From the IMG/VR virus record IMGVR_UViG_3300029419_000188: a stretch of DNA of 64,000 nt; one strand, written 5' to 3'. Under the pieces are notes generated by a model. It ran no database searches and had not been told where the DNA came from. It worked only from the letters and a program-made list of their open reading frames with translations. The stretch's first letter is position 1. Every line of letters begins with the position of its first letter. A program made the position numbers and the translations under genes. The stretch comes from a virus. Below, piece by piece: positions 1,691-36,926 of this stretch.

Positions 1691-1729
1691 AAAATGAAAT
1701 TAAAAAAGAATAAAAAAGGAGGAGTTTTT

Positions 1730-2497: not shown

Positions 2498-2605
2498 AGA
2501 AATGCAAAAGTTAGAACATTTATTGGTATTAGTTTTTATATCTTTTAAAGTTTTCTCTATAATAAAAAAATGAAATTAAAAAAGAATAAAAAAGGAGGAG
2601 TTTTT

Positions 2606-9495: not shown

Positions 9496-9755
9496 AAAAA
9501 ATAAGAAAGGAATAAAATTTTATGAATGATAGATGTTTATATAATGTACAAAAATCAATTATTGAAGAAATTAAACAAGAATTGTTAAAGAAAGCAGAAA
9601 CAGAAAGACAAAAAAATGTAATTAAAGAAGTTTGTAATTCGGTTGCAAGAAAACACAGATTTGATGATTTAAAATAATTTAAGTGTTAAAAAAATGCATT
9701 ATAATTGATATTTTGGTTAACTTGATTCAAAAACTTAACTTCACTATAAAAAATT

Positions 9756-9795
9756 ACTCCACTTGATTTAAACAAGTGGAGTTTTATAACTTTAA
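9756..9795 (+). terminator. rho-independent terminator
   Basis: hairpin actccacttg-attt-aaacaagtggagt followed by TTTTAT. Confidence 0.6.
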
Positions 9796-9886
9796 TAAAA
9801 AATAAACTTTTAAGTTGTAATTATTTTTCTTGTATCTATAATAAAAAAGAACAAGTAATTAATAAGAATAAAAAGGAGAAAATTTT

Positions 9887-10117
9887 ATGAAATTTGAAAA
9901 ATATAATAAAGTATCATTTTTACATCAAAGATATATTCAACAAATACGGACGTATTTAAATTCAGTTGGAAATTTAAATGCAACAGATCTTGAATTAGAA
10001 AATGCTTGGATACAATTTTCAGAGTATTTTCTTAATCAAAATTGGATTGAAGTAACTAATATGCATCTAAAAGTCTTTGCAGAATGGTTACAAAAATATT
10101 GTGATGAAATTGAATAA
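9887..10117 (+). CDS. hypothetical small protein (NATDLELENAW family)
   Basis: promoter tctataat at 9835 and RBS; C-terminal motif shared with the C-terminus of 46978..47478; terminator hairpin at 10161-10196. Confidence 0.5.
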   Translation: MKFEKYNKVSFLHQRYIQQIRTYLNSVGNLNATDLELENAWIQFSEYFLNQNWIEVTNMHLKVFAEWLQKYCDEIE

Positions 10118-10695
10118 AAGATAAGTTTTAATGTTTTTTCTTAAAATGTTTAAAATAATTAAATTGTCTCTATTTTTATGGAGACAATTTAATTTTTGAG
10201 TCATAATGAAAAAAATAAATAGAAATTATGTTTAGATATTTTTTTTAAAAGTAGAAACTCAAACTATTTTTTTTTCATATTTTTCTTACATTTGTCTATA
10301 ATAAAGAAAAATTTCAGAAAGAATTAAAAAAGGAGAAGAAATTATAATTTATGGATGAAAAAGTATTGAGAAAATTTAAGACAAATAATTTGACAACTAT
10401 GAAAAAGATATTTCATAATTGTAGTGAATGCTACTCAAATAATAAAAGAAGAAAGTGTAAGTAAGAATGCTTCTGATTCATTAGATCTAACTTGGATTAT
10501 TAAATAAGATATTTACCATGCAAATTTGCATGGTATTTTTTTTGATAAAATTTGGAAAATGATTTAATTGTCTACACAATTTTATCTAATTTCAATTATT
10601 TCATAATATCTTAAATTTTCTTAAATTCATTATATTTGTCTCATAATTATCTATAATATAAAAAAGAATTTTAAGTTTTTAAAAGGAGAGAAATT

Positions 10696-11340
10696 ATGAA
10701 TATTAATGATTATCTTAAAATGTTTAATGAAACATTAATGAATGCAAAAATTAAAGATACAATAGATATTGATCATTTGAAATATGTTGCAATTCAAACA
10801 ATTGAAAAACAATATAAAGTAAATTATCTTACTTCTGATTCAATATCTGTTTCCTATCCATTTTCAAAATTTACAACAGATGGATATGAAATTAAATGTA
10901 AGTTAAATTTCATATTCAAAATTCAAGTAGGTAAAACAGATAAAAAGGAAATGATATCAGAAAAGAAATTTAAATATCTAAGACATTTGAACGGAATTAA
11001 ATTTGTTAAAAGTACTATTTCTTTAAAAGTTAATATATTTAAATTTGTATCTAATAAAACAATTGCTGCATCTGATTGGTCTGGAATTTCTCCAATTGAT
11101 ATTAAATTGAAAAAAAATCAAGAAATAAAAAATTTCATTGAAGAGTTAGATATTGATAAATTTAAGATTGATACAAAACAGATTGTGTGTTTTCCATTTA
11201 TATTGAAAGCTGAACATGAAAAAGATTTCGCAGATCAACATAATTATAATCAATTCATTATTGGACAGCATAAATATGATTTTGATAAAATGTATCAATA
11301 TATTTTTGATAAATTTGAAGTAAAAAAACAAATAAAATAA
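10696..11340 (+). CDS. hypothetical protein
   Basis: consensus leader TTTTAAAAGGAGAGAAATTATG; promoter tctataat at ~10650. Confidence 0.55.
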   Translation: MNINDYLKMFNETLMNAKIKDTIDIDHLKYVAIQTIEKQYKVNYLTSDSISVSYPFSKFTTDGYEIKCKLNFIFKIQVGKTDKKEMISEKKFKYLRHLNGIKFVKSTISLKVNIFKFVSNKTIAASDWSGISPIDIKLKKNQEIKNFIEELDIDKFKIDTKQIVCFPFILKAEHEKDFADQHNYNQFIIGQHKYDFDKMYQYIFDKFEVKKQIK

Positions 11341-11478
11341 TATAAGAAAAATTAATGGAAAACTTATAAAAACAGATATTGAACAACATGTAATGCAAGA
11401 AAAATATTATTTGAGAGAAGAACTTTCATATAAATTTATATAAATTTGATTAAGTTTTCAAAAGGAGAGAAATTACGA

Positions 11479-11664
11479 ATGAAAGAAATTGAAAAAAAAT
11501 TAAATAATCTTGAAGATGAGTTTGAAAAAATGAGAGAAAAAATTAAAACAAATAATTTATCAAATTGGAAGTGTTCCTGTAATTTAAATATTTCAGAAGA
11601 AGAATTAAAGAATTGGAATACAGATAATCCAGATAATATGTGGAAGATTAAATTTATGAAATAA
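11479..11664 (+). CDS. hypothetical small protein
   Basis: consensus leader AAAAGGAGAGAAATTACGAATG; start moved to the internal ATG with RBS. Confidence 0.45.
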   Translation: MKEIEKKLNNLEDEFEKMREKIKTNNLSNWKCSCNLNISEEELKNWNTDNPDNMWKIKFMK

Positions 11665-11676
11665 GGATAGAAAATT

Positions 11677-11718
11677 ATGGGAAAAGTAATATTTTGTTAT
11701 GGAGGTAGAAACAGTTAG
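11677..11718 (+). pseudogene. remnant of a thymidine kinase 5' end (MGKVIFCYGG..stop)
   Basis: matches the first ~10 codons of the TK gene at 19920 (MGKLIFCYGAMG), then an early stop. Confidence 0.4.
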
Positions 11719-11907
11719 AACATTATTACACAAATATGTACAATTTTTCTTGATTGTACATATTTTTAGTTACATATTTTAATTGGTTGTTATATAATAT
11801 AAAAAAATACAAGAAAAAAGAATCTTATATGTTCAGGTATTGAATATTTAAATAAATTAGATTTTAGAGAAATTAGAAATCATTTAGCAACTTACGAAAA
11901 AGATGAA

Positions 11908-12135
11908 ATGGAAAAATTTCATTTACCAGGTCGAACATGGAAAATGGAATTATCAGAAGTCATTTCAAATGTAAAAACAATGTGGGTAAATACTGCTGAT
12001 GAAATAAAACATTATATCCATGATAATGAGTATCTAACAAGTGAAGATCAACATTATTTATTTTATATATTAAAAAGTACGGATTTATGGACAGAAGCAT
12101 TACAATTTAAAAAAGTATCTGAAACTAAAAATTAA
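11908..12135 (+). CDS. hypothetical small protein
   Basis: ORF only. Confidence 0.35.
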   Translation: MEKFHLPGRTWKMELSEVISNVKTMWVNTADEIKHYIHDNEYLTSEDQHYLFYILKSTDLWTEALQFKKVSETKN

Positions 12136-12216
12136 GTACAATTCAAGTCTCAAAAGATAAATCTTATTTATGATGTTGGTTAAAAACTTCCTAGTAGAAA
12201 ATAATAAAAAAATTTG

Positions 12217-12236
12217 AAATATCTGTTGACAATTGT
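12217..12236. promoter_or_regulatory. 14-bp palindrome TTGACAATTGTCAA-like candidate operator overlapping a -35 element, representative copy
   Basis: further copies at ~36884, 40822, 46417 and 56326, each matching the palindrome at 12-13 of 14 positions. Confidence 0.5.
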
Positions 12237-12284
12237 CTTTAAAAATGGTATTATAAATTCATAAATAAGAAAGGAAAGAAGTTT

Positions 12285-13679
12285 ATGATTCAAATTATTA
12301 TTCCAATTATTGTAGCAATTATTTTAATCTTTTTTATGGGATATGTAAAAGCTCCACCAAATATTGCAATTATTATTTCTGGTTTAAAGAAAGAACCAAG
12401 GTATTTGATTGGACGAGCTGGAATTAAAATTCCATTTCTAGAAAGAAAAGATACTCTAATTGTAAAACAAATTTCAGTTGATATTAAAACAAATGGTGCA
12501 ATTCCAACTGCAGATTTTATTGGTGTTGATGTTGATGCTGTTGCAAAGATTAAAATTAAAACTGATCAAGATGGTATTAAAAAAGCAATGGGAAACTTTC
12601 TTAATATGTCTGAAGATCAAATTATTGAAGCACTCACTGATTCTCTTCAGGGCAACATGAGAGAGATTATTGGTACAATTCCATTAAAAGATATCTGTAA
12701 TGATAGAAAACGTTTTGGAGATGAAGTACAAGAAAAAGCACAAACAGATATGAATGCACTTGGTATTGAAATTATTTCTTGTAATATTCAAAGAGTAGAA
12801 GATGAAAATGATTTAATTAATGCTCTTGGTCAAGATAATATGGAACAAATCAAGAAAGATGCAAGTATTGCTAAAGCAAATGCCAAAAAAGAAGTTGCCA
12901 TTGCAGAAGCTGAAGCAAGAAAAATTGCAAATGAAGCAGATGTTGAAGCTGACAGAATTATTGCAGAAAGAAATAATGAGCTTGAAATTAAGAAATCTGA
13001 ACTTAAAAAACTTGCTGATATGAAGAAAGCAGAAGCTGATGCTGCATATTCAATTCAAGAACAAGAACAAAGAAAATCCATTGAAGTAACAACAGCAAAT
13101 GCAGATATTGCAAAAGAAGAACAATATATTATTCTAAAACAAAAAGAAGCAGATGTTAAAGAACAATCTCTTAATGCTGAAATTAAGAAAAAGGCAGAAG
13201 CAGACAAATTTGCAAAACAACAAGATGCTGAAGCTCAATTATTTGCAAGACAAAAAGCAGCAGAAGCTAAAAAATATGAATTAGAATTAGAATCTGCTGG
13301 TATTAGAGCAAAAGGTGAAGCTGAAGCCGATGCAATTAGAGCAAAAGCAATTGCAGAAGCTGAAGGTATTGAGAAAAAAGCAGAAGCAATGCAAAAATAT
13401 GGTGAAGCTGCTATTCTTGAAATGTTCTTTAATGCATTTCCAGAAGCAGTTAAAAATGCAGCAGAGCCTCTTGGTAATGTTGAATCTATTACCATGTACG
13501 GTAGTGGAAATAATGAAAAAATGATTGATTCAATTATGAATACTGTAACACAAGTATCAGATGGAATTAAAGGATCAACTGGATTAGATGTAAAAGCTAT
13601 TATTGAAGAAATGATTGAGAAAAAGAAAGAAACAAATCAAGATTTCAAAGAAGTTGATGTTGAAGAAACTGTTGAATAG
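12285..13679 (+). CDS. flotillin-like SPFH/Band-7 domain membrane protein
   Basis: N-terminal TM helix, SPFH core, then a long Ala/Glu/Lys-rich coiled coil (AEAEARKIA...) typical of FloT/YuaG-like flotillins; sigma-70-like promoter TTGACA-17-TATTAT upstream, overlapping the palindrome TTGACAATTGTC. Confidence 0.7.
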   Translation: MIQIIIPIIVAIILIFFMGYVKAPPNIAIIISGLKKEPRYLIGRAGIKIPFLERKDTLIVKQISVDIKTNGAIPTADFIGVDVDAVAKIKIKTDQDGIKKAMGNFLNMSEDQIIEALTDSLQGNMREIIGTIPLKDICNDRKRFGDEVQEKAQTDMNALGIEIISCNIQRVEDENDLINALGQDNMEQIKKDASIAKANAKKEVAIAEAEARKIANEADVEADRIIAERNNELEIKKSELKKLADMKKAEADAAYSIQEQEQRKSIEVTTANADIAKEEQYIILKQKEADVKEQSLNAEIKKKAEADKFAKQQDAEAQLFARQKAAEAKKYELELESAGIRAKGEAEADAIRAKAIAEAEGIEKKAEAMQKYGEAAILEMFFNAFPEAVKNAAEPLGNVESITMYGSGNNEKMIDSIMNTVTQVSDGIKGSTGLDVKAIIEEMIEKKKETNQDFKEVDVEETVE

Positions 13680-13681
13680 TT

Positions 13682-13712
13682 AAAGAGAGAGTTTTTAACT
13701 CTCTCTTTTTTA
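13682..13712 (+). terminator. rho-independent terminator
   Basis: hairpin aaagagagagttttt-aactctctcttt plus a T-run. Confidence 0.7.
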
Positions 13713-14162
13713 GTTTAAATTTTTCCCATATAATTTTTTGTTTATAAAGTTTTGATTACAATCCAATTGATATAAATCTGTATTATTATAAGGAATATAA
13801 ACCATATAATATGTTTGTCCAATACGAATTTGATTTAAATTTTCTCTTAAAGTAAAATCTTCCGTTAATTTCAAATTATCATAATTTGAAAAAAGCATTT
13901 TTTGATAAGAACGTTTATGTTTCCCACTAGTTTTATAATGTTGAATATCGATCAATTCAACTTTTTGAATATAAAAATTATTTTCTTTAATTTTTTTTAT
14001 AATTTTTTTTGTAAGAATTTAAAGCAAAATTATAAATTAACAGATATAAAATTGCAATTGTTGCTTCATGAAATGAAAATAAAAGATTATTTGTTATATT
14101 TTTTTTATAAAAATATATAATATAAAAATTAAACTTATAAGAATTTTAAAAGGAGTAAATTT

Positions 14163-14393
14163 ATGAAAAAACCAACTAAACAAGAATATGAAGAAGCTTG
14201 TAATAACATTAATTTTTGTAAAAATACAATTCGTTTAACAAGACAGAAGATTGATAAAAATTTAGATGAACTTTGTTCTTTAAAAAGTCAATTAAACACT
14301 TATCAAGAATTTTTAAATCAATCAATTAAAATCAAAGATAAATATGAAATTTATGAAGGATTAGAAAACGAGAAAAATGAAGAAAATTTGTAA
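14163..14393 (+). CDS. hypothetical small coiled-coil protein
   Basis: RBS AAAGGAGTAAATTT. Confidence 0.45.
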   Translation: MKKPTKQEYEEACNNINFCKNTIRLTRQKIDKNLDELCSLKSQLNTYQEFLNQSIKIKDKYEIYEGLENEKNEENL

Positions 14394-14448
14394 GACAAGT
14401 AGAATAAACAAATGAAAATATTTAAAATTTTCAAAAGGAGAGAAAATT

Positions 14449-15063
14449 ATGGAAAAATTTAAGTTAGAGAAAACTATTGAACTTGGGAAGAAAGTAATTA
14501 TTTCTGATCCTGGATATAATATGGATACTTGGTGTATTGGCATATTAAATGACGTACTACTTGGTACATATGAATGTTTTTATGAAATAATTGAAGATAA
14601 TTCTTGGGGAAGAAGAATTGCTTCAATTGAAGTAAAAAATAAAGATTATGAATTTTATGATTTTTCAGAAAACCTTGATGCAGAGATTGGAGTTGATTCT
14701 GGACAATGTGGAATCTATGATTATGATTATTTTAAGCAGAATAATCAGAAAGAAGATTGGTATGGTCAAATTTGTAATTTAACATATATTGAAGAAGAAA
14801 ATCCAAATTATAAAAATTTTTATGAATCAAAATATTATTTTGATCAAGATATAGATGATTTAAAATGGATTAAATATCAAAAATATGTAGATGATGAAGA
14901 AATTTCAAGAATGTTTTTTTCTAGATTTGCAGCAGATACATTCGAGGATAAATGTCTTGTATCTTCATCTGGATATGGTGATGGTTTATATGATGCATTT
15001 GTAGAAAGAAACAATGATGGAAAAATCATTGGAATAAAAATTTCATTTATTGAAGAAGAGTAA
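14449..15063 (+). CDS. hypothetical protein
   Basis: consensus leader; terminator hairpin at 15069-15100 (aaatacattctaga-ttt-tctagaatgtattt). Confidence 0.5.
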   Translation: MEKFKLEKTIELGKKVIISDPGYNMDTWCIGILNDVLLGTYECFYEIIEDNSWGRRIASIEVKNKDYEFYDFSENLDAEIGVDSGQCGIYDYDYFKQNNQKEDWYGQICNLTYIEEENPNYKNFYESKYYFDQDIDDLKWIKYQKYVDDEEISRMFFSRFAADTFEDKCLVSSSGYGDGLYDAFVERNNDGKIIGIKISFIEEE

Positions 15064-15171
15064 TTTAAAATACATTCTAGATTTTCTAGAATGTATTTTA
15101 CTTAAGATAGATTCCTTTTAATTTTGAATCATTCCACTGATTTTGATTCAAATTATTACTTTGATATCTTT

Positions 15172-15455
15172 ACTACTCAAAAAAGTGGTCACAGTCTCCA
15201 CAATGATAGATCTCAACATTTGGTTTATCAAAACTATCGTATTCAAATTCTTCATTTGTGTAATATTTTCTATCATTGACTGCAATGTAATCTACACCGC
15301 TTGTCCTGTCAAAATCCATTCGAAACTTAAAAATCTTCTTACTACCACAATATGGACATTGACATTATCTGTATTGGGCAAGTGTCTTTAAATGTGAAAG
15401 ATAGTGTTCAGTCAGATATTCAATGTCATCAATATCTTCATCAATCTTGTGAATT
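15172..15455 (-). pseudogene. disrupted paralog of the Zn-ribbon gene 61350..61772, with an in-frame TAA and its 5' part separated by an IS insertion
   Basis: minus-strand translation ...LAQYR*CQCPYCGSKKIFKF...EIYHCGDCDHFF aligns with ...KQYRKCKCPRCGSKKIFKF...EIFHCGECDYLFS; the likely N-terminal remainder lies beyond the IS at ~17257-17330. Confidence 0.5.
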
Positions 15456-17256
15456 ACTCATGACTAAAGTCACGAGTGTCTTTCAAGATACATGTTTATA
15501 ACTCATTAAAAATGAGTATAGGATTAAATGCACAATCCAGATATTTTCTTACCTCATATGCCTGATGCAAATTTTTTGGATTTGTCTTACTCTGGCTCGC
15601 ATAGTTATCCCTTGATAACCATGATCGTACTATATACGATATAAGCTTAAACTACCACCATTCCCAGCGGTACTAAATTTTTTATATAATAATTGATAAA
15701 ATCTATTGTTGATATTTCATTTACATCGTTATATATATATAATTAATTTTATAAAGTTTTTTTATTATAACCTAAAATTTTATATTACAAGAATATTATT
15801 AAGAGACAAAATACTAATACCTTCATCAAATAAATTATTTTTTGCATTTGCATCTCGATCATGATGTACTCCACAAATTGGACATGTCCATTCACGATTA
15901 TTTAATTTCAAATTTACATTCTTATAACCACAATGATTACATAACTTACTAGATGCAAAAAATCTATCTACTTGAAGAAAAATGCCACCTTTCTTTTCCA
16001 TTTTATATTTTACAAATGTTAAAAATTGTCCCCAACCAACTGATGCAATTGCTTTCGCTAACTTATGATTTTTTATCATACCTTTAATATTTAAATCTTC
16101 ACAAATAAAAACATCACATTTATTTACAATTTCTTTACTTAATTTATGATGAAAATCTTTTCTTTGATTTTTAATCTTTTGATGTTCTTTTGCTAATTTG
16201 TATTTTGCTTTTTGATAATTATTAGATCCTTTCTTTTTTCTACTAAGTGATTGACTTAATCTTCTTACTCTTTTTTCATGTACTTTAATAAATTTTGGAT
16301 TTTCAACTTTTTCAGTATAATCTTTATTTCCATAAATAGCAAAATCTTTAATTCCCATATCAGATGCAATAATATTTTTTACATGCACAGTCGTAATAGG
16401 AATTGGTTTATCAACAATTGCTTCCATTTGCAATGAAATAGTATAAGTATCTTTATTTCTTTTTATTGTTGCACTTGTAATATTTGTATTCTCTGGTTGA
16501 ATATCCTGTAAGGTTTTTCTTTTTGGTAAAACAAATCTTACTTTTCCAACTTTAGGAATTTTTACATATGGTAATTTATCAATCATTAATAATTCAATGT
16601 TGTTATTTGTATATTTTGTTGTATAGGAGTTTCCACTTTCTTTATATTTATCTACAAATTTAGGAAATCCTGCTTTTTTACCATTTTTAATATTTTCAAA
16701 AAAATGATTATATGCATCATCAACATGTTCAATTGCACTTTCTAATGCAAATTTATCAGATAATTTTAAGAATCCATTTTCTTTTTTTAATTTTGGTAAA
16801 AAATTCTTTTTATAGTCAGATACAAATAGAGTTTCTTTTGAAGTTTCATAAAGATTTTTACGTTCTGATAAATAATTATTTCTTACAAATCTTGCATTAC
16901 CAATTTGTTGATTAATATTGATTGTTTGCTTTTCATTTGGTAATAAAGACAAAATAATACCATAATTAAAAAGCATTTTTCCATATGGTTCAAGAAGTGT
17001 ATTCTTATCTTTTGTAATAGTGAAACTTCTGCCATGAAAAATATATTTATTATTAATGATTTCTAATGTTAGCATATTTTTTATTCCTTTCATATCTGAT
17101 AAATATCATTCTATTACATTTATTGACAAAAGTCAATAAAAAATTCGTTTTTTAGTATTTTTTTATATTTTTAATAATTTCTTTATACATTAAAAATATC
17201 CTACAATAATAGTATTATTGTAGAAAGAAACTTTACTCATGACTAAAGTCACGAGT
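15455..17256 (-). mobile_element. TnpB-only IS200/IS605-family element (IS1341-like) bracketed by a 23-bp direct repeat containing an imperfect hairpin
   Basis: tactcatgactaaagtcacgagt at 15455-15477 and 17234-17256; tnpB inside; GC-richer 3' region 15480-15780 where a right-end guide (omega) RNA would be encoded. Confidence 0.55.
15780..17075 (-). CDS. tnpB: TnpB (IS605 OrfB family RNA-guided nuclease-like transposon protein)
   Basis: GNARFVRNNYL N-terminal motif and a C-terminal zinc finger CNHCGY...CPICG followed by HDRDANAKNN (RuvC-III-like); start moved to the ATG with RBS GAAAGGA. Confidence 0.7.
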   Translation of the reverse strand: MLTLEIINNKYIFHGRSFTITKDKNTLLEPYGKMLFNYGIILSLLPNEKQTININQQIGNARFVRNNYLSERKNLYETSKETLFVSDYKKNFLPKLKKENGFLKLSDKFALESAIEHVDDAYNHFFENIKNGKKAGFPKFVDKYKESGNSYTTKYTNNNIELLMIDKLPYVKIPKVGKVRFVLPKRKTLQDIQPENTNITSATIKRNKDTYTISLQMEAIVDKPIPITTVHVKNIIASDMGIKDFAIYGNKDYTEKVENPKFIKVHEKRVRRLSQSLSRKKKGSNNYQKAKYKLAKEHQKIKNQRKDFHHKLSKEIVNKCDVFICEDLNIKGMIKNHKLAKAIASVGWGQFLTFVKYKMEKKGGIFLQVDRFFASSKLCNHCGYKNVNLKLNNREWTCPICGVHHDRDANAKNNLFDEGISILSLNNILVI

Positions 17257-17632
17257 ATGCAGTTTCTATTTTAATCAAATGCTGAGTTAATTTCCAATGA
17301 TGTATCAATTACAGCTGCAAATAAAACTGTAAAATTTGAAAAGGTAAATACTTCAACTGCAGACAAAGAAAACACAAATACAGTCAATAATACAACAACT
17401 GATAATCAAAATAAAGTAGATAAAACACAAACAAGCGATAATAATCTTGTTGTAATTATTCAATATTCATTAATATTTATTTTCTGTATTGAATTAGTTT
17501 GATATTTCATAAAGAAAAAAAATTAATCTTTTAAGAAGAATGCAAAAAATTGCATTCTTCTTTTATATTTTTTATATTTTTATCTATAATATAAAAAATA
17601 ATATTTTTGAATTTTAAAAGGAGAGAAAAATT

Positions 17633-18136
17633 ATGAAATATTTAAGCAAATTAACAGATGCAGAACTTACGGAAATTTACAAATCTTTTATGACTTCAAC
17701 TGATAAATTTGTAGATTTAATAATTACAAGAGATGAGAACAGTATTACACTAGAAGGACATATTCGTATTCCAGAAGAAGATAAAGAGTATGCAGATGAA
17801 GAAGGATATTGTCTAATTGATGAAGATTATGAGATTACAGATTACAATGTAACAGCATATCATCATTCTGGAAATATGGATTATAAATTAAGAGAATATT
17901 TATATGAAAAATTTGGAGTTGAATATGCAAAAGATTTCTTATTTATGAATAATAATTTTACTGGGCATTATGATGTAAATGGAAAACCAATCTTCCTCGG
18001 AGATACTATTATTGAAGGTTGTAATGGACTTATCAGTAGTGTTGAATTTAATAAAGAACGTGGTGCATATTGGTTAAAAGGACTTGGTGATGGTTATTCA
18101 ATTGAAAATTCATCTATTGAATGGGAAAAAATTTGA
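17633..18136 (+). CDS. hypothetical protein
   Basis: promoter tctataat at 17583; consensus leader. Confidence 0.5.
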   Translation: MKYLSKLTDAELTEIYKSFMTSTDKFVDLIITRDENSITLEGHIRIPEEDKEYADEEGYCLIDEDYEITDYNVTAYHHSGNMDYKLREYLYEKFGVEYAKDFLFMNNNFTGHYDVNGKPIFLGDTIIEGCNGLISSVEFNKERGAYWLKGLGDGYSIENSSIEWEKI

Positions 18137-18149
18137 AAGGAGTGAAAAT

Positions 18150-18464
18150 ATGTATTGTAAAAAACTGAAAGAAAAGAATTGTTTAAAAATAGGTGGAATC
18201 TATAGTATTGATGATAAATATTTGATTATTCCTATTACAAATGATTTACAAGCAGTACTTCAATTAGATGATATTCTTAAAAAATATAAAAAACAGATAC
18301 CAAGTAATGAATTGATTAATATATTTGTTGAAGATTTTTTTGAAGATACTGAGTTTAAACATTTTGATCAAATATATTATAATGGATATTTAGGTCAACT
18401 TGATAAAAGGAATTTGAATTTGATAGAACTTAATTATCAAACAATTCAAGAAAAAAAGAAATAA
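18150..18464 (+). CDS. hypothetical protein, KIGGIY paralog family
   Basis: N-terminal LKIGGIYSIDDKYLII shared with 34519, 42353 and 53419(-); RBS GAAAGGAGTG. Confidence 0.5.
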   Translation: MYCKKLKEKNCLKIGGIYSIDDKYLIIPITNDLQAVLQLDDILKKYKKQIPSNELINIFVEDFFEDTEFKHFDQIYYNGYLGQLDKRNLNLIELNYQTIQEKKK

Positions 18465-18499
18465 TATTGAAAAATTTAAGATTAAAAAGGAGAAAAATT

Positions 18500-19021
18500 A
18501 TGAAAATTAAATGTACAAAAAAAGTATCATATGAGATGAGTAGATATCCAATAAATTGTAAAGAGTGCCCTTACTTCTCAAAAACACCGTATAGATACAT
18601 GAACGAATGTGGCGAGGAAGGTCATTGTGAACTTGGATATTTTGAAGATGATATGAGAGATTTTTCTGGAATCATTAAATATCCAAAATGTAATATTCAA
18701 AATGATCCACGTGTATCATTGATGAAAAAAGATAGAGAAAAATTAAGAGAATTTCTTCTAGACCAAGATGTATGGGATAGAGAAGTTGATGAAATTCTTG
18801 ATGATTTTACGAATGATGTTACAGTAGATGATTTAAAAATTGTTGTAATATTTAATTCTTTATATGATTTGGCAGAAAATTATATTGACAGTGTAATTGG
18901 TTCATTGGATCATTATATTGACTCTGTTCTTGATTATGAGGAATTAGGTAAAAGAATAGCAGAAAATGGTGATGAATACATGATTCTTTCAACAGGAAGA
19001 ATTGTTGAATTTGAATTATAA
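18500..19021 (+). CDS. hypothetical Cys-rich protein
   Basis: RBS AAAAGGAGAAAAATT; CKECPYF...CGEEGHCELGYF. Confidence 0.45.
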   Translation: MKIKCTKKVSYEMSRYPINCKECPYFSKTPYRYMNECGEEGHCELGYFEDDMRDFSGIIKYPKCNIQNDPRVSLMKKDREKLREFLLDQDVWDREVDEILDDFTNDVTVDDLKIVVIFNSLYDLAENYIDSVIGSLDHYIDSVLDYEELGKRIAENGDEYMILSTGRIVEFEL

Positions 19022-19219
19022 ACTTAAAAGAACAACTGACAATTTGAATTAATTAAAAAAAATATGTACAAATAAAATAAATTTGTACATATTTTTTATT
19101 ATTTGGAAAAGAAATTGATATAAATATTTTTTTACTATTCTTTTAATTTATCTTCATATTTTTCTTTTTTTTATCTATAATATAAAAATTGAAAATCAAG
19201 TTTTTGATAGGAGAAAATT

Positions 19220-19903
19220 ATGAAAATAGAGATACAAGAAGTATTAGAAACTCTTCAATCAGATATTACTGAAAAAGAAAATCAAATTAATTTAATCAAA
19301 AATATTGATTGGACAAAATCTGTAACAGAAGAAGAATGGCATCAAATTTGTGAAACTTTATTACGAACTTCAGATTCATTATGTGATCTCTTAAAAAATA
19401 CTTTTCCAAATGCAACAGATATTAAACTTGGAATGAATTATGTAAATTTTAATTTATATGGATTTAAATGTTTACTTCCAACATCTATTTATGAAGAAAT
19501 ACTTGTTGATATGAGTTGGAATAAAAATCTAAAAAAACCAACACTTGAAAACACAATGAATCAATTTGAGAGAAATATGCGAGAATATTTCAAGTCAGTA
19601 GATTCTCATGAATCTTGGTTAAAATTATTTGATTTAAGATTTTTACAGTTTAAACATTATAAAAAATGGATTAAATTCATTTTATGGTTTGGGAAATATA
19701 AATGGAAAAATGTTCATCGAGAAAAATGGGAAGAACAATTCAAAAATACAGAAGAAAGAGTTACTGAAAAATTAAATTTGTATAAAAAAGAAAAAAGAGA
19801 AATTGAAGAAAAAAATAAAATACTTCATGAGAAATTGTTACCAGAATTATATCAATTTACAAAAAATGTTTATGATAAAGATTACAAAAAAGAAATTATT
19901 TAA
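19220..19903 (+). CDS. hypothetical protein, paralog family B
   Basis: promoter tctataat at 19174; paralog of 8809..9495. Confidence 0.6.
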   Translation: MKIEIQEVLETLQSDITEKENQINLIKNIDWTKSVTEEEWHQICETLLRTSDSLCDLLKNTFPNATDIKLGMNYVNFNLYGFKCLLPTSIYEEILVDMSWNKNLKKPTLENTMNQFERNMREYFKSVDSHESWLKLFDLRFLQFKHYKKWIKFILWFGKYKWKNVHREKWEEQFKNTEERVTEKLNLYKKEKREIEEKNKILHEKLLPELYQFTKNVYDKDYKKEII

Positions 19904-19919
19904 AAAAAGGAGAGAAAAT

Positions 19920-21161
19920 ATGGGAAAGTTAATTTTTTGTTATGGAGCAATGGGTGCATCTAAAAGTGCAGAATTACTTATGTGGCGGTATAACTATGAA
20001 CAATCTGGATACTCAGTATTATTGATGAAACCTAAGATTGATAATAGAGAAGAATTTTTGTCAAATAAAATGGGCGTGATTTCATCTAGAATTGGATTAA
20101 CTGCAGAATGTTTATTAATTGATAAAAAAATTGAAGAATGGGAAAATGAAATACAATGTCATGATATTATTATGGTTGATGAGTCTCAATTTTTAACAGA
20201 ATTACAAGTAGATGAATTATATCAAATTTCTATGAATAAAACTGTTATTTGTTTTGGTCTTAGGACTGATTTTACACAACACTTTTTCTCTGGTAGTAAA
20301 AGACTTATGGAATTGGCAACAGATATCAGAGAATTAAAGACAGTTTGTACTTGTGGGAAAAAAGCAACTATTAATGCTAGATTAAATGGAGATAAATTAG
20401 TAACAGAAGGTGAACAAATACAAATTGGTGCAAATGAATCATATAAAGCAATGTGTAAAGATTGTTTTGAAAAACTAAAAAAAGAAAGTGAAGAAAATCA
20501 TGAAATAACAAAAGAAGAAATTACTAAAATTATTAAAAATGACAATTTGGATTTACAAATTCTTGATGAAGGTATTGATATATCATTTAAAGAATACGCA
20601 GAAAAACATTCATTGGAAGAGTCAATAAATATATTATGGAATATATTTAAAAACGAAAAATCTGCAATAAAAAATGGATATTCAAAAGAACATTATCAAG
20701 ATTATCTATCATTATTTAAAAAAGAAATGCAAAAAGACATTAATAAAACATATAATGCATTAGAAATATCAAAATATATAATAAATAAATGTTTAGAGGA
20801 TAAAAAACCTATCTCGCATATACAACTTCAGAAAATATTATATTCTATTCAATTAGAATTTTTAGAAATCAATAAAGTTTTGTTTTCTGATAATTTTTAT
20901 GCAATTCAAATTGGCCCAGTAATTTTAAGTGTATATAATTATTTTTGTGGATCTGGAGCACAAAAAATCATGACATCTTTTAAAACAGATATTCAGTGGA
21001 ATGAATTAGATAAAATAATCATTGATCAAATTATAAAGGAAAAAAGAGAATTATTGCCATGGGAATTTAATGAAGAGATTATGTATAAAAATTCTCCATA
21101 TGATATTACATGGCAAAATGGAAAAGGAAATTGGAAAATAATTAAATTGACAAAAGGATAA
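19920..21161 (+). CDS. tdk: thymidine kinase with a C-terminal Panacea (DUF4065)-like domain
   Basis: N-terminus has P-loop GAMGASKSAEL, MVDESQFL and a C-terminal CxCG Zn site typical of type II TK; the final ~200 aa contain ISHIQLQKILYSIQLEF...FYAIQIGPVILSVYNYF, matching the Panacea-domain pattern (LQKLLY...AW.yGPV...vY); start at the ATG after AAAAAGGAGAGAAAAT. Confidence 0.6.
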   Translation: MGKLIFCYGAMGASKSAELLMWRYNYEQSGYSVLLMKPKIDNREEFLSNKMGVISSRIGLTAECLLIDKKIEEWENEIQCHDIIMVDESQFLTELQVDELYQISMNKTVICFGLRTDFTQHFFSGSKRLMELATDIRELKTVCTCGKKATINARLNGDKLVTEGEQIQIGANESYKAMCKDCFEKLKKESEENHEITKEEITKIIKNDNLDLQILDEGIDISFKEYAEKHSLEESINILWNIFKNEKSAIKNGYSKEHYQDYLSLFKKEMQKDINKTYNALEISKYIINKCLEDKKPISHIQLQKILYSIQLEFLEINKVLFSDNFYAIQIGPVILSVYNYFCGSGAQKIMTSFKTDIQWNELDKIIIDQIIKEKRELLPWEFNEEIMYKNSPYDITWQNGKGNWKIIKLTKG

Positions 21162-21173
21162 AAAGGTGAAATT

Positions 21174-21347
21174 ATGACAATTTATACAATCTCATATTAT
21201 GAAGAAGATGAACAATTTGGTGGAACACTTACATTAAAAGATTATGTTTATAGTAAAACAGAAGAAAAAGCTCTTGAAAAATTTGATAAAAAACATCCAA
21301 ATACAAAAGTAAGATTTGTTTCAAATTGGATAACTGCTGATTATTAA
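21174..21347 (+). CDS. hypothetical 57-aa protein tightly coupled downstream of TK-Panacea
   Basis: RBS AAAAGGTGAAATT 12 nt after the upstream stop; not in the ORF track (<60 aa); coordinates approximate. Confidence 0.35.
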   Translation: MTIYTISYYEEDEQFGGTLTLKDYVYSKTEEKALEKFDKKHPNTKVRFVSNWITADY

Positions 21348-21617
21348 GTATAATTATTAACTAAATATATACTTATAATAAGATTACTTGGCAAATGCTA
21401 AGTAATCTTATATTTTGTCTAAAAAGAATTTAGTTTCATTTGTCAAAATATCACAATTTTCATATCATTATTGTATCTGATTGTTTCATTGAACTACAAA
21501 TTTGAATTACATTTGTCTAATATTTTAGACTTTATTTTTTTTTAATAAATACATTTTTTTATTATATTTTTTATTTATTTATCTATAATAATAAAAATAA
21601 AATTGAGAGGTGACACT

Positions 21618-22367
21618 ATGTTCAATCAAAGACGAAAACATAGTGCTTATTTGGAATATGATGATGGTAAAATTAAATCAACAGAACCAAATAGCACAAA
21701 AGAAAAAGTACAAAATATTATAAACTCTCATAAAAAGGAAGATTCTTTTACAAGTAAAGATTTTATATCATTATTATTGTTTTTAATTATTACAATTACT
21801 TTTATTTTATTAACATCATTTTTTATAAAATATATTTCAATTAGTATGAATTCAAAAACATCAAATTATAAAGTAAGTAATACTATCTCCAAAACAACAA
21901 GTAACATTAATTTAACAGAAAGAAAGAATAAAGAAAATGTTTATGAAAATATGTCATTATTATTAACATCTGTAAATAATTATAATACAGAAATAACATC
22001 TATCTATTCAACTTTAAAAGGATATATTAGTATTTATTATAATGGGAAGGAAGGTCGAATCATGACACAACGATCTTTAACAGCAATGGAAGATAGAATA
22101 GATTTAGATATTTCAATTATAAAAAATGATGAAATTTTTAAAAATCAAGAAAAACTAAAAAATTTATATATAAATCGATTTGAAAATATCAGAAATTATT
22201 TACAAATTGAAATAAATGATAAAGAAAAAGCCTTAAATGATTTAAATAAAATAATTTTAAAAGAGAATGATTTATATAAAAAATGTGATAATGAAATTTC
22301 AAATATTTTAGAAAACAATCAAACAACTTATGTAATAATGAATAATAAATATCAAATACAAAAATAA
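21618..22367 (+). CDS. hypothetical membrane-anchored protein (single central TM)
   Basis: promoter tctataat at 21583; RBS GAGAGGTG; hydrophobic segment FISLLLFLIITITFILLTSFFI. Confidence 0.5.
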   Translation: MFNQRRKHSAYLEYDDGKIKSTEPNSTKEKVQNIINSHKKEDSFTSKDFISLLLFLIITITFILLTSFFIKYISISMNSKTSNYKVSNTISKTTSNINLTERKNKENVYENMSLLLTSVNNYNTEITSIYSTLKGYISIYYNGKEGRIMTQRSLTAMEDRIDLDISIIKNDEIFKNQEKLKNLYINRFENIRNYLQIEINDKEKALNDLNKIILKENDLYKKCDNEISNILENNQTTYVIMNNKYQIQK

Positions 22368-22435
22368 TTATGCAAATCTAAGTAATAATAAATTTATAAA
22401 AATCTATAATAAAAAAAAAGAAAAGGAGAAAAAAC

Positions 22436-24034
22436 ATGTATGGAAAAAAGAAAAAGATAATAATTGCTGTTATAATTGGTATTGTTTTGTTATCAATTAT
22501 AGGAATTGCAATTCATCTCCTTTCAAATAAAGAGGAGAGATTAGGTATTAAATATATTGGAGGAGATAAATATGTAGATGCTAGATTAACTGCTGAAGAT
22601 TTTGAAGTTACTGATTTAAAATCAGGAAATAAAATTTCTTCTAAAAAATTAAAAATTTCTGCTGAACCATTGAATATGGATGGAACAATTGTAACCATTT
22701 CAACTACATTGGATGGGAATGAATATTCTGGACAAATTACTGTTTATCCAACACTTGTTATTACATCAATAAAAGCAGAATTAATACCTACAAATAAACA
22801 TATTGGTAGTAAAATTTCCCAAAAAGATTTTAAGGTAATTGGGAAAAACAATAATAATAAAGAAGTAAGATTAAAAGATTTTACACTGGATCATTCCACA
22901 TTAAAACAAGCAGAAAATGATGTAAAAATAGAATATAAAACATCTGTTGGAACAGTTAGTACAACATTACATATTAGTGTAACTGAAAATTTTGTAAAAG
23001 GTGTAAAAGCAAAATATAATGGTAAAGCAGCTTTTATAGGACAAGATGTAGACGAAGATGCATTTGATGTTTATGCAATTTGGGATGATGATGAAGAAAC
23101 AAAAATGGAAGAATATAATATAGAAGATCCTACATTAACAAGTAGTACAACAGTTGTTACTGTTTCAATTACAGATGATTTAGGTAAAACATTTTATACA
23201 GATGTAAAAGTAAAAGCAGTTAATTATGTGGTAGATATTGATCATGTTTCCTATGTAGGACAAGAACAAACAATTGGAAATACAGTTGAAAAAAGTGATT
23301 TTGAAGTATATGGAATTTATTATGATGGTTCAATAAAAAAAGTTGATAATTTTAAATTCAAAAGTAGTGCAGTATTAAAAGCAACAGAAAACACAATTAC
23401 AATTGGTTTAACAAATGAAATTGGTTCTTCCATTGAATACCAAGTAGGTGTTAATGCTGAACAAAATATTATATATGTTGGAGATTCAAGAATAAAAGAA
23501 CTACAAGTATATAATAAATCAGAAGAAGCAAAAGAAGCAAATGGATATAATGAAAAAGAAGAAAAATGTTATTATATTTATTCAGATAGAGCAGACTATA
23601 ATTGGTTTGAATCAACAGCAAAAGGACAAATTCAAAGTATTTTAGATAAAAATCCATATACAACATTTAGAATTGTCATTTCAATTGGAACATTTGATTT
23701 TAATAATATTAATAAATATTTGACAAGTTATGAAAAATTAGCTAGAACAACATGGAAAAATCAAAGAATGTATATTGATTCATTAAATCCAGTTGATGAA
23801 ACACAAATGGAAAAATCAGGGGTATATTCTAGAAAAGATATTAATACAACAAAAATTAATGATTTTAATAAACAATTAAATCAATCTATTGCAAATTATA
23901 ATTTAACTAATTTAAAATATATTAATACATATGGATCATTAACAAATAATGCATTTAAAACAAAAGATGGATTTAATTATACAAATGAAACTTATCAAGT
24001 TTTACATGATAGTGTAAAAGAATTATCAATATAA
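22436..24034 (+). CDS. membrane-anchored protein with Ig-like repeats and a C-terminal SGNH/GDSL-like hydrolase domain
   Basis: N-terminal TM; repeated beta-rich ~90-aa segments; C-terminus has IIYVGDSRI (GDS block I) and later ISIGTFD and DGFNY...HD blocks; terminator hairpin at 24041-24071. Confidence 0.45.
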   Translation: MYGKKKKIIIAVIIGIVLLSIIGIAIHLLSNKEERLGIKYIGGDKYVDARLTAEDFEVTDLKSGNKISSKKLKISAEPLNMDGTIVTISTTLDGNEYSGQITVYPTLVITSIKAELIPTNKHIGSKISQKDFKVIGKNNNNKEVRLKDFTLDHSTLKQAENDVKIEYKTSVGTVSTTLHISVTENFVKGVKAKYNGKAAFIGQDVDEDAFDVYAIWDDDEETKMEEYNIEDPTLTSSTTVVTVSITDDLGKTFYTDVKVKAVNYVVDIDHVSYVGQEQTIGNTVEKSDFEVYGIYYDGSIKKVDNFKFKSSAVLKATENTITIGLTNEIGSSIEYQVGVNAEQNIIYVGDSRIKELQVYNKSEEAKEANGYNEKEEKCYYIYSDRADYNWFESTAKGQIQSILDKNPYTTFRIVISIGTFDFNNINKYLTSYEKLARTTWKNQRMYIDSLNPVDETQMEKSGVYSRKDINTTKINDFNKQLNQSIANYNLTNLKYINTYGSLTNNAFKTKDGFNYTNETYQVLHDSVKELSI

Positions 24035-31449: not shown

Positions 31450-31665
31450 TTTAATATTGACAACCTCCCACGGATAAATCCGTGGGATTCCTTAGATTCG
31501 ACAATCGCACTAGCATTCCTAAGAACACTAGATATAAATTGTCTCTTTCAGGATTTCGTGCATTTCGTTCAAGGCAAAGCCTTTTACTAGATATCTTGTT
31601 TTCACAAGAACAACGCGGTTGATGTCTGAACCGTTTTTTATTTATTTATATGTTAATTAATTAAA
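31450..31665 (-). ncRNA. putative TnpB guide (omega/right-end) RNA scaffold region
   Basis: GC-rich structured non-coding DNA immediately 3' of tnpB with several hairpins, where IS605-family TnpB omega RNAs are encoded. Confidence 0.4.
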
Positions 31666-33235
31666 ATCCAAAACAATTTTTATAACTAATTTTTTTTGCT
31701 TTCATATCTGCAATCAATTCATTTTGCAACTTTATAAAATTATCAAATTCTGCAATACACTTATCTCTATCAACATGTTTAAAACTTATATCTGCATTAT
31801 GGTATAAAAATGCACTATATAAATCTCGTTGTACTTTTTGTCCATCAATTATTTTTTCTCTTTGGTTTAATGGTATTTTTACATAAGTATCTGTATCATG
31901 ATTATATTGACTACCTTTATATGTGATAGGATTCACATAAACAATTTTTCCCTCCATTTGTTTTACTTTTTCTTCTAACAATTTTAAAAATCTAGCTGGT
32001 GATCTATCATTAATTGTTTTTCCAAAACGTTTACATCTATTTTTATTATTATTTGATTTTATTTGTTTATCATTATTTTCAAATGTTGTATTTGTTTCTT
32101 TTTTATTATTGACATTTTGTTCATTTGAACAATCTTTTGTTTCTACAAGTTTCTTTTTTTCCTTCTTTTTTAATGCATTAAAATTCATATCTTCAATAAT
32201 AAAAAATAATGAGTCTTTTACTATTTCATTTACTTGAGTTCTGTGTGAATGTGTTGTATATTCAGATTTTTGTCGATACAAATTTTTTAATTTATTTCTT
32301 AACATACAATATCTTTTTGAATATACCCATTTATCTTTACTTCTCTTTTTTATTGTTCCATCTTCATTATATTTCTTTGGATTTGTTATACGCTTTGAAT
32401 ATTCCATCTTTTTTTGAATTTTTGCAATTTTTCTATTATAATTTTTACATTTTGGTGCTAATTCATTTAAAACAGTTTTTGTCTCTGAATATCCAGCAAC
32501 AGTTGAAATACTTGGATCCATTCCCATTGTGGAACCTTTTGATGTTATATTTCGTTTTGGTGGTTCTCCTTTGACATAAATTAGCGCATAATAGTGCCAA
32601 CCATTATTAAACATTCTACGTTTAATTTCACAATAAGAAATTTTATTTTCTAAAGATTCAAACAAATACACATCTTCAAGATTATATTTGGATATTTTGC
32701 ATTTTAAGTTAAGACCTAAATATTCAATTGTATAAGTATTTTTGTCAAATTTAATTCCATTTTTTAGACTTTTACTTGGAAGTGTATTAAAATCACGGAC
32801 TTTTTTATAATGAATTGTTTTTCCAGTTGAAAACAAAACCTTTTGAACACCATTCCAAACATTATCTACCTCTTTTTGAACTTGTGAGGATGCCAACATT
32901 TTAGAAAATTGACTACCACAAACTTTCATATAAGACTCTAATCCAGTTTTTGTGAGTCCGATTTCATACTTTATTTGATTCATGATATCTGATAATTCTT
33001 TTTTCCGTTTTTGTTTTTTTTCTTTATCAGATTTTGTATTTGGTTTTGATTCATTTAATTTAATATATTCTGTCAAAGCATTTTGATATTTTTTATTTGT
33101 TTTTAATGAGTTGATAAGTTTTTTTGTATGAGATACACATACATTATGAACATGTTCTAATGCAAAAAATCGATTTGCTAACTCTCTATGATCATATTTT
33201 GTTGTATCAATTAATAATTCTACAGTATACATCAT
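31661..33235 (-). CDS. tnpB: TnpB (IS605 OrfB family)
   Basis: 524-aa protein in the canonical position downstream of tnpA within paired IS ends. Confidence 0.65.
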   Translation of the reverse strand: MMYTVELLIDTTKYDHRELANRFFALEHVHNVCVSHTKKLINSLKTNKKYQNALTEYIKLNESKPNTKSDKEKKQKRKKELSDIMNQIKYEIGLTKTGLESYMKVCGSQFSKMLASSQVQKEVDNVWNGVQKVLFSTGKTIHYKKVRDFNTLPSKSLKNGIKFDKNTYTIEYLGLNLKCKISKYNLEDVYLFESLENKISYCEIKRRMFNNGWHYYALIYVKGEPPKRNITSKGSTMGMDPSISTVAGYSETKTVLNELAPKCKNYNRKIAKIQKKMEYSKRITNPKKYNEDGTIKKRSKDKWVYSKRYCMLRNKLKNLYRQKSEYTTHSHRTQVNEIVKDSLFFIIEDMNFNALKKKEKKKLVETKDCSNEQNVNNKKETNTTFENNDKQIKSNNNKNRCKRFGKTINDRSPARFLKLLEEKVKQMEGKIVYVNPITYKGSQYNHDTDTYVKIPLNQREKIIDGQKVQRDLYSAFLYHNADISFKHVDRDKCIAEFDNFIKLQNELIADMKAKKISYKNCFGF

Positions 33236-36796: not shown

Positions 36797-36926
36797 AAAA
36801 TTTCCCCTTTCTATTATCAATTATTATCTAAGTATAATATGTTCAACTTGAAAAATATTTCAATTTATGATAAAATCATAAATGAAATAAAGACAATTGT
36901 CAATAAAAAATAGAAAGGATTAAAAA

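Follow-up and report, generated by a model that had tools for sequence, protein, structure and literature searches.

An in-frame fusion of thymidine kinase and a Panacea domain in a phage-like element from gut metagenomes

Stand-alone Panacea (DUF4065) proteins directly neutralise membrane toxins, and N-terminal additions to the domain are common (PMC8832971, PMC10440598). Panacea is known for its unusual promiscuity as an antitoxin domain, but the part it plays when some other element does the neutralising is still unexplained (PMC10440598). Here, we describe a gene that places a type II thymidine kinase (TK), a lineage-specific extension, and a Panacea module on one 413-aa polypeptide, followed after 12 nt by a 57-aa open reading frame (ORF). 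The locus raises the questions of whether the fusion is genuine, whether the small ORF is its toxin, and what a Panacea domain might do when attached to a metabolic enzyme.

Modules of the fusion gene

The window (the whole stretch of DNA analysed, 64,000 nt) belongs to a very AT-rich (23% G+C), phage-like element from gut metagenomes. PHROG matches in the element included nucleotide-metabolism genes, an integrase, and transposases, which suggest that it is a phage; structural genes were sought and none was identified. The features discussed below are as follows.

11677-11718, + strand: TK 5'-end remnant (28 nt of TK start, then unrelated sequence, with a stop after 13 codons)
19220-19903, + strand: upstream 227-aa gene, no family assigned, ending 16 nt before the TK start
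19908-19912, + strand: Shine-Dalgarno-like AGGAG of the fusion gene, 7 nt ahead of the start codon (direct sequence reading)
19920-21161, + strand: fusion ORF, 413 aa, from ATG (19920) to TAA (21159-21161)
19920-20477, + strand: TK module, type II/TK1-like, aa 1-186 (PF00265, phrog_592, alignment to solved TKs)
20478-20726, + strand: lineage-specific C-terminal TK extension, aa 187-269, common to Panacea-less TK relatives
20727-21158, + strand: complete Panacea/DUF4065 module, aa 270-413, whose first codon is the former start M270
21163-21169, + strand: Shine-Dalgarno-like AAGGTGA of the 57-aa ORF (direct sequence reading)
21174-21347, + strand: 57-aa ORF, 12 nt past the fusion stop, last gene of the transcription unit
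21378-21411, + strand: terminator-like hairpin (15-bp stem and T-rich tail) closing the transcription unit

The N-terminal part was recognised from the outset as a type II TK, and profile searches agreed: PF00265 matched aa 2-183 over its full length (profile positions 1-176 of 176) with 130.8 bits (E value, 6e-38; cut-off, 20.6), and phrog_592 (thymidine kinase) matched at 2.5e-58. The first 186 aa aligned end to end with type II TKs (PF00265; T4 Tk, E. coli Tdk; 1XX6, 2JA1, 2ORW), sharing with them the P-loop Lys and Ser, the Walker B Asp-Glu (D87-E88), and the four zinc-site cysteines (C143, C145, C179, and C182; these and D87-E88 align with the 1xx6 and 2ja1 residues), and the module also carried GLRTDF at aa 113-118. 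Unlike those enzymes, the fusion continues past the kinase with 83 aa of extension and 144 aa of Panacea, and its P-loop (aa 9-16, GAMGASKS) keeps Lys15 and Ser16 but has Ser14 in place of the usual Gly (GxxxxGK[ST]). The module is 87% identical to relatives. The GAMGASKS variant was invariant among all close relatives and also occurred in distant ones such as P0034 and P0025. Catalysis is presumed from the intact residues, as aligned with solved TKs.

The original prediction assigned the C-terminal ~200 aa to Panacea. The domain itself stood, with PF13274 (SocA_Panacea) matching aa 303-384 at 28.3 bits, above its gathering cut-off of 25.7 (E value, 3.7e-6), and phrog_1281 matching aa 275-385 at 1e-18, but its size shrank to about 144 aa (aa 270-413). 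The remainder, aa 187-269, proved to be a separate extension that is present in Panacea-less TK relatives (P0002-P0021), has no match in Pfam and no known family, and is predicted by AlphaFold2 (AF2) to be mostly helical with a beta hairpin (pLDDT, about 63 to 81). Long phmmer alignments and a phrog_10390 match spanning aa 186-362 hinted that this extension is the N-terminal element of longer Panacea proteins; the idea was rejected when the extension, as sequence or profile, matched 0 of 149 Panacea representatives at an E value of ≤10.

With aa 186-413 as the query, an exhaustive phmmer search returned 1,384 proteins at an E value of ≤1e-3 and 263 at ≤1e-10, almost all of them stand-alone Panacea proteins of 130 to 160 aa, and those at ≤1e-10 were themselves PF13274 proteins. 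Against a profile built from 95 relatives, the module scored 175 bits. It carries LQKILY at aa 303-308 and the GPV motif, a conserved Panacea signature (PMC8832971), at G332-P333-V334, columns that were 100% conserved in 87 partnered relatives. The AF2 models (covering aa 186-413 and the 57-aa ORF) gave aa 270-413 a predicted fold of seven helices and a short hairpin (pLDDT, 91 to 98); the published description of Panacea is a compact fold with some seven helices and a pair of short strands (PMC10440598). The predicted fold matched viral Panacea models and DarG chain 7yk3_D. A search of PDB sequences with the Panacea alignment profile found none at an E value of ≤0.1.

Origin and spread of the fusion

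The fusion's 90% identity cluster had 29 members, mostly of 413 aa, on dozens of contigs (up to 97 kb) from independent ENA, Logan, and JGI samples. Among the full-length members listed, which came from many samples and two genome arrangements, there were no stops or frameshifts. The fusion is thus a genuine in-frame gene, intact in a circulating population. A separate Panacea protein started internally at M270 was considered and discarded, since this codon has no ribosome-binding site (RBS) and encodes Ile in the majority of alleles, namely 12 of the 13 full-length cluster members listed (the window's own sequence excluded) and also L006 and L007.

The closest TK relatives (66 to 76% identity; 275 to 296 aa) lack Panacea and stop 0 to 5 residues past E269, and nucleotide homology to locus L008 ceased at window position 20726. 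A complete, once separate Panacea gene was therefore joined in frame at precisely the point where the TK reading frame ends. Since these relatives end exactly at the junction, Panacea was captured at the TK 3' end, which is demonstrably recombination-prone. A 55-aa ORF behind the TK in L004 and L005 was considered as a possible relative of the 57-aa ORF but proved to be a duplicated remnant of the tail of the TK extension.

Local rearrangement, read in the original prediction from a decayed TK start at 11677-11718, was borne out: 25 of 28 nt at 11677-11704 were identical to the TK gene's opening 28 nt (0 such matches expected by chance), and the remnant was closer still to the relatives' version of the TK start. 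In L001 and L003, a different gene lies behind the same RBS as that of the remnant. The upstream 227-aa gene (19220-19903) is a paralogue of the gene at 8809-9495 (69.6% nucleotide identity to 8809-9460); Pfam, PHROG, and PADLOC placed it in no family.

The suspicion that TK-Panacea is an undescribed architecture held up: no description was found in the literature searched, no GenBank phage record covered at least 80% of the fusion protein, and among 93 homologue clusters, only the fusion's own 90% cluster had both Pfam domains. Scans of IMG/VR and GTDB genomes gave no matches to the fusion or to the TK-extension family. This pairing of domains is new but restricted to one lineage, and because it is confined to one 90% identity cluster, the fusion is of recent origin and may be selectively neutral.

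The usual membrane partner and the 57-aa ORF

The nearest stand-alone relatives of the module lie directly upstream of a phrog_5763-type protein (about 300 aa, multi-pass, with 3 to 5 transmembrane segments) at 18 of 23 IMG/VR loci and 68 of 80 bacterial loci; the two genes, taken as stop-to-stop ORFs, are offset by -54 to +18 nt at most bacterial loci. This layout, about 145 aa directly upstream of a membrane protein, is that of the validated membrane PanAT pairs of Bartonella, Helicobacter, and E. coli, whose Panacea belongs to the same domain family (PMC8832971, PMC10440598). Unlike in those pairs, Panacea is here fused and without an adjacent membrane partner: no phrog_5763-type gene was present in the window or the 7.8 kb beyond it (about 72 kb; cluster contigs reach 97 kb). 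Pfam, PHROG, and PADLOC found no toxin families among the neighbouring genes, and PADLOC had no match to the fusion gene, the genes around it, or the partner family.

The module has also changed where partnered proteins are constrained. At 43 columns with 85% or more conservation in partnered relatives, it differed at 14, compared with a mean of 2.0 for the partnered proteins; other partner-less homologues differed at 8 to 30 and remain intact ORFs in compact phage genomes. Near-invariant residues were replaced at I329 (from W), I387-M388 (from T-H), and Y394 (from W). LQKILY, GPV, and W381, the motifs of the fold core, were kept. With no conserved partner gene beside it and partnered-type residues not retained, sequence and gene context do not support reading the fused Panacea as the antitoxin of a PanAT pair.

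The small downstream ORF had been put forward as a possible cognate partner. It is a real co-transcribed gene: it has its own RBS (AAGGTGA), as predicted, always accompanies the fusion, and precedes the only terminator-like site (21378-21411) in 19000-22500, where 0.2 would be expected. A PanA-PanT type II pair, in which the fusion's Panacea would counteract the 57-aa product of the ORF lying 12 nt downstream, would fit the tight bicistron with its shared terminator and the invariable company of the two genes. It would also fit the only distant homologue (65%), which at L019 also comes second in a tight pair, there behind a different gene, as in the partner swapping typical of toxin-antitoxin systems. 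We nonetheless regard such a pair as very unlikely. The upstream ORF at L019 is not Panacea, no homologue of the 57-aa ORF was found by tblastn and family scans at any of 103 other Panacea loci, and the strongly conserved partner of this Panacea subfamily is the phrog_5763-type protein. Nor does the 57-aa protein look like a toxin: it has no transmembrane segment and no match to a toxin family in Pfam, PHROG, or PADLOC, and its modelled fold, soluble and beta-beta-alpha-beta, was likened to eL20/LX and small phage inhibitors (T7 Gp2, p56, AcrIE2, and Dmd), not to known toxins. Scans of IMG/VR, JGI metagenome contigs, and GenBank phages with the ORF found nothing. It is probably an independent small phage protein, and the case is a warning for annotation that a Panacea match plus any small downstream ORF does not make a toxin-antitoxin pair.

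Possible roles of the fused Panacea module

Our leading, though tentative, reading is a working TK joined to an orphan, protein-binding Panacea that acts in trans, possibly in counter-defence, with the 57-aa ORF as a separate gene. The TK module would be an ordinary salvage enzyme, supplying the dTMP needed to replicate a genome of 23% G+C. The orphan Panacea would bind a protein in trans, most plausibly a toxin or defence effector of the host or of a resident prophage, which would make it a counter-defence module that mimics an antitoxin. Through its link to TK, Panacea could be expressed early, at a fixed stoichiometry, and gain multivalency from an oligomeric enzyme; the 57-aa ORF would share the transcript as a separate small phage protein and not as the toxin of a pair. 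T4 Dmd, an orphan phage antitoxin against host RnlA/LsoA, is a parallel in that its cognate toxin gene is likewise missing from the phage. It differs in having an unrelated sequence and fold and an experimentally shown activity, where that of the fusion is inferred. The residues lost at I329, I387-M388, and Y394 may be the ones that bind the usual membrane toxin; simple mimicry against the phrog_5763-type family is therefore doubtful, and the true target of the module may be something else.

Several accounts compete with this orphan-antitoxin reading. Panacea may be a neutral or decaying passenger, functionless, tolerated, and heading for loss, created when loss of the last TK codons, stop, and spacer joined two adjacent genes. 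The single 90% cluster, the recombination-prone TK 3' end, and the 14 of 43 partnered-type conserved residues lost all suit this account, as does the finding that amino acids vary at 8 of 144 Panacea sites and at 5 of 186 TK sites, roughly a twofold difference. We nevertheless think it unlikely: the full-length members listed were all intact across samples and both genome arrangements, other partner-less Panacea ORFs also stay intact in compact phage genomes, and the module is confidently modelled with its core motifs kept. In addition, the Panacea part had 5 synonymous and 4 non-synonymous variable codons, against a ratio of roughly 1:3 expected without selection, although these counts are small.

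An improbable account, on which we place the same weight as on the passenger, is that Panacea works in cis on the enzyme it is joined to, as a sensor, regulator, or stability element governing how active TK is, how it oligomerises, or how fast it turns over. Such a role has been proposed for Panacea in multidomain antitoxins, and the proteolytic adaptor SocA is a parallel. Panacea can also be an accessory to an attached N-terminal domain that does the acting, and a sensory role has been proposed (PMC10440598). A protein of the same Panacea subfamily (P0182) is independently fused to another deoxypyrimidine enzyme, 5'-3' deoxyribonucleotidase, and in Enterococcus phage EF1, a stand-alone homologue lies four genes downstream of DHFR and two downstream of FolD. 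However, the closest TK relatives work without Panacea, and no TK lies within 2.5 to 3 kb of the 103 other Panacea loci. Moreover, large phages carry many nucleotide-metabolism genes in their early regions, and fusion driven by adjacency alone would therefore favour such partners anyway. A TK domain acting as a toxin neutralised in cis was rejected, as close relatives have the same TK without Panacea.

Comparison with DarG suggests another account, in which Panacea binds a toxin and TK reverses the damage by restoring the thymidine nucleotide pool. The DarG macrodomain removes the DNA ADP-ribosylation made by DarT, and the DarG C-terminal domain binds DarT. DUF4065 proteins are homologous to this DarT-binding domain (PMC13621843), and the order of an N-terminal enzyme and a C-terminal Panacea-like domain is the same. 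Even so, we hold this account to be highly improbable. DarG of DarTG (PDB 7YK3; Deep et al. 2023, as cited in PMC13621843) has a macrodomain glycohydrolase as its enzyme, whereas that of the fusion is a kinase. DarG is encoded beside its toxin DarT and the fusion has no adjacent toxin gene, its Panacea has no detectable sequence similarity to DarG, no toxin is known that thymidine kinase specifically counteracts, and TK relatives lack the Panacea domain.

More speculatively, and in our view very unlikely, orphan Panacea domains of phages may be recurrently fused to deoxypyrimidine enzymes (TK here; the deoxyribonucleotidase of P0182) as a sensor or clamp tying thymidine-nucleotide supply to a host toxin or defence effector. 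If true, this would amount to a DarG-like, two-pronged counter-defence combining effector binding with pool repair, and would offer a concrete, testable case for the unexplained non-neutralising role of Panacea. Multidomain PanA proteins (HTH, PAD1, and MqsA-type; PMC8832971, PMC10440598) likewise carry Panacea C-terminal to an independently active part. Their N-terminal additions are DNA-binding or toxin-neutralising, and a metabolic enzyme in that position was unreported in the papers searched. As a TK fusion without the usual toxin, the gene is a simple natural construct for separating Panacea action in trans from regulation of its own polypeptide.

The comparison with the phrog_5763-type family may outweigh the fusion itself in usefulness. 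Panacea and this membrane protein form a highly conserved two-gene module, widespread in gut Bacillota and the phages of these bacteria, and the positions kept only when the partner is present are likely to be the interaction surface. The partner was also found in a Helicobacter prophage.

Modules of the fusion gene

The gene under study and a small ORF behind it close one transcription unit, because the hairpin that follows is the only terminator-like site in the region (0.2 expected):

19920-21161, +, fusion ORF of 413 aa (ATG at 19920, TAA at 21159-21161; AGGAG 7 nt 5' of the start)
21174-21347, +, 57-aa ORF (first codon 12 nt 3' of the fusion stop; preceded by AAGGTGA, the ribosome-binding site [RBS] originally predicted)
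21378-21411, terminator-like hairpin directly 3' of the 57-aa ORF

The original prediction, a type II thymidine kinase (TK) followed by a Panacea domain of some 200 aa, was upheld for both identities by Pfam (PF00265, aa 2-183, 130.8 bits; PF13274 [SocA_Panacea], aa 303-384, 28.3 bits, above the curated cut-off of 25.7) and by PHROGs (phrog_592, thymidine kinase, 2.5e-58; phrog_1281, unknown function, aa 275-385, 1e-18). An exhaustive phmmer search with aa 186-413 against 1.84 billion representatives returned 263 proteins at E<=1e-10, and the Panacea signal lies well beyond chance. The predicted extent needed correction: Panacea covers aa 270-413, and aa 187-269 form a separate extension, so that the protein has three modules rather than two.

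The kinase module (aa 1-186), aligned to solved TKs (1xx6, 2ja1), retains Lys and Ser of the P-loop, D87-E88, and all four zinc cysteines. Its P-loop, GAMGASKS (window 19944-19967, aa 9-16), with Ser replacing the usual Gly before Lys, is invariant among all close TK relatives and recurs in the more distant TKs P0025 and P0034. The extension had no family match and is common to all close TK relatives. Residues 270-413 correspond to a whole stand-alone Panacea protein, end to end: most of the best 150 phmmer matches were proteins of 130 to 160 aa aligned from their own residue 2-5, and residues 12-145 of P0094 (155 aa) align with fusion aa 278-411 (42% identity). Panacea's GPV signature (PMC8832971) occupies aa 332-334. 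For aa 186-413, an AF2 model (95 homologues as input) reached a pLDDT of 85.9 (91-98 in the Panacea part) and a pTM of 0.80, and also matched viral predicted structures of 147-157 aa.

Capture of Panacea at the TK 3' end

The trimodular protein arose when the 3' end of a TK gene took up an orphan Panacea gene in frame, and the population maintains it. The closest relatives (P0002-P0021; 66-76% identity, 275-296 aa) comprise TK and extension and end 0 to 5 residues past the position of E269. Nucleotide homology between the window and the comparison locus L008 ceases at 20726, the final base of codon 269, downstream of which the genes are wholly different. Proteins 98.5 to 100% identical to the fusion are encoded on ENA, Logan, and JGI contigs of up to 97 kb; the 90% cluster of the fusion comprises 29 proteins, almost all 413 aa long, and none of the listed full-length ones carries a stop or frameshift. 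At residue 270, presumably once the start codon, the window has Met, and L006, L007, and most cluster members have Ile (ATT); no RBS precedes codon 270; the Panacea part is therefore not separately producible. The fusion is young and limited to one lineage.

The TK locus is a recombination hot spot. Immediately 3' of the TK stop, L003 (6947-7054), L004 (1014-1181), and L005 (1119-1286) carry a 55-aa ORF, a leftover copy of an alternative, short-type extension tail (57% identical to aa 234-269), and the extension tail has therefore been exchanged at this site. The decayed TK 5' remnant on which local rearrangement had been predicted was confirmed as 28 nt behind another gene's RBS (11677-11704; 25/28 matches, 0 expected). 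L016 lacks window 9461-19219 (9.76 kb) through recombination between paralogues at 8809-9495 and 19220-19903 (227/228 aa, 69.6% nucleotide identity). Fusion-bearing and Panacea-less phages occurred within one sample twice (ERZ27242617, L003 and L016; ERR11564314, L004 and L018).

The segment missing from L016 holds SPFH/flotillin, DUF4241, and TnpB genes and the TK 5' remnant. Among TK relatives, P0004 (L009-L013) has a 22-aa insertion within the kinase domain after residue 47, and in those of 292 aa (P0005/P0008 type; L001, L003) the extension is longer and contains a Cys-rich insert, GCIGICCQIGENAFYF.

Panacea partners and the 57-aa ORF

Relatives of aa 270-413 were taken from 23 IMG/VR loci and from the best 80 of 265 matches in species-representative bacterial genomes (mostly gut Lachnospiraceae, Oscillospiraceae, and Negativicutes). 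Mutually homologous proteins were encoded directly 3' of Panacea at 18/23 viral and 68/80 bacterial loci (best 80 of 265), offset in most bacterial loci by -54 to +18 nt between stop-to-stop ORFs; several loci without this partner stop at a contig edge.

L023-L043, L046-L124, Panacea (~145 aa) + phrog_5763 module (e.g., L024:3007-4359; L056; L081, Schaedlerella arabinosiphila; L112, Selenomonas sputigena)

The partner (phrog_5763, unknown function; no Pfam or PADLOC match) is mostly 250-430 aa long, with a soluble N-terminal half and 3 to 5 predicted transmembrane segments; the motifs RHxYS and KLYDH lie in the soluble half. The pair is also present in a Helicobacter rodentium prophage. In some experimentally validated PanAT pairs, the antitoxin is Panacea standing alone, and it acts directly on a membrane toxin to neutralise it (PMC8832971, PMC10440598). 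Gene arrangement is the same here, and the pair is a candidate widespread membrane-toxin PanAT family of gut Bacillota.

At a threshold as loose as E<=10, the partner profile had no match in the window or in the 7.8 kb past its right end. At 43 columns, each at least 85% conserved across 87 partnered Panacea proteins, the window deviates 14 times against a partnered mean of 2.0 (N to H300, W to I329, F to I331, V to N384, T-H to I387-M388, and W to Y394 are among its substitutions). In other homologues lacking the partner the count is 8 to 30, and in loci whose partner is missing merely through a contig end it is 0 to 3. Given these deviations and the missing partner, the fused module is an orphan freed of the pair's constraints.

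The 57-aa ORF, originally proposed as a cognate partner, is a genuine gene: all contigs with the fusion conserve it, and its codons vary synonymously as well as non-synonymously. It forms only three clusters in 5.8 billion proteins, and its sole distant homologue (65%) is the last gene ahead of a terminator on a 684-bp contig of higher GC (L019), where the ORF upstream is not Panacea. Partner swapping could in principle account for L019, but a toxin role found no positive support and is highly improbable; the protein has no hydrophobic segment and no match in Pfam, PHROG, or PADLOC, and its predicted fold is a generic small one, common in phage inhibitor proteins and unlike known toxin folds.

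Interpretation and genome background

The TK module would serve thymidine salvage for a genome of 23.4% G+C, and the Panacea module would be a protein-binding unit working in trans, possibly on a host or prophage toxin, with TK supplying expression timing and multivalency. That the fused Panacea is a neutral passenger is unlikely; between the window and L006, 5 of its codons differ synonymously and 4 non-synonymously, small numbers but not what dead sequence would show. Regulation of TK in cis is likewise doubtful, and a dual mechanism like that of DarG, the enzyme-antitoxin fusion of DarTG, is very improbable. The preference for action in trans over these alternatives, and over a toxin role of the 57-aa ORF, comes from comparative evidence.

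Each domain is well known on its own, and Panacea often carries additions at its N-terminus. As originally supposed, the architecture is undescribed: a metabolic kinase N-terminal to Panacea was absent from the literature searched, and the fusion from GenBank phages. Three long proteins were among the best 150 Panacea matches:

P0134, 332 aa, DUF3841 + Panacea
P0101, 347 aa, tandem Panacea
P0182, 569 aa (L020:5001-6710), Panacea + 5'-3' deoxyribonucleotidase, on a 45-kb phage-like contig

Enterococcus phage EF1 (MF001358.1, 142 kb) encodes a partner-less Panacea homologue (L021:3019-3471) four genes downstream of DHFR and two downstream of FolD, thus amid thymidylate-cycle genes. P0182 and EF1 hint at a tie between Panacea and thymidylate metabolism, and may equally be explained by the gene content of phage early regions; TK lay within 2.5-3 kb at 0/103 other Panacea loci.

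The phage identity of the element is unproven, because no tRNA or phage structural gene was recognised in the window. Most of its genes are unrecognisable; those recognised include guanylate kinase, dCMP deaminase, and the following:

1694-3361, +, two DUF285 proteins
12285-13679, +, SPFH/flotillin
15780-17093, -, TnpB/IS605 OrfB, 436 aa, Cas12f-like TNB domain
31661-33235, -, second, weaker TnpB-like ORF (phrog_506, 2.4e-16)
35555-36820, -, MgsA/clamp-loader-like AAA+ ATPase
36927-38558, +, VWA (CoxE-like)
58132-59250, -, tyrosine integrase
L126:10824-12841, Y1 transposase + TnpB pair, just past the window's right end
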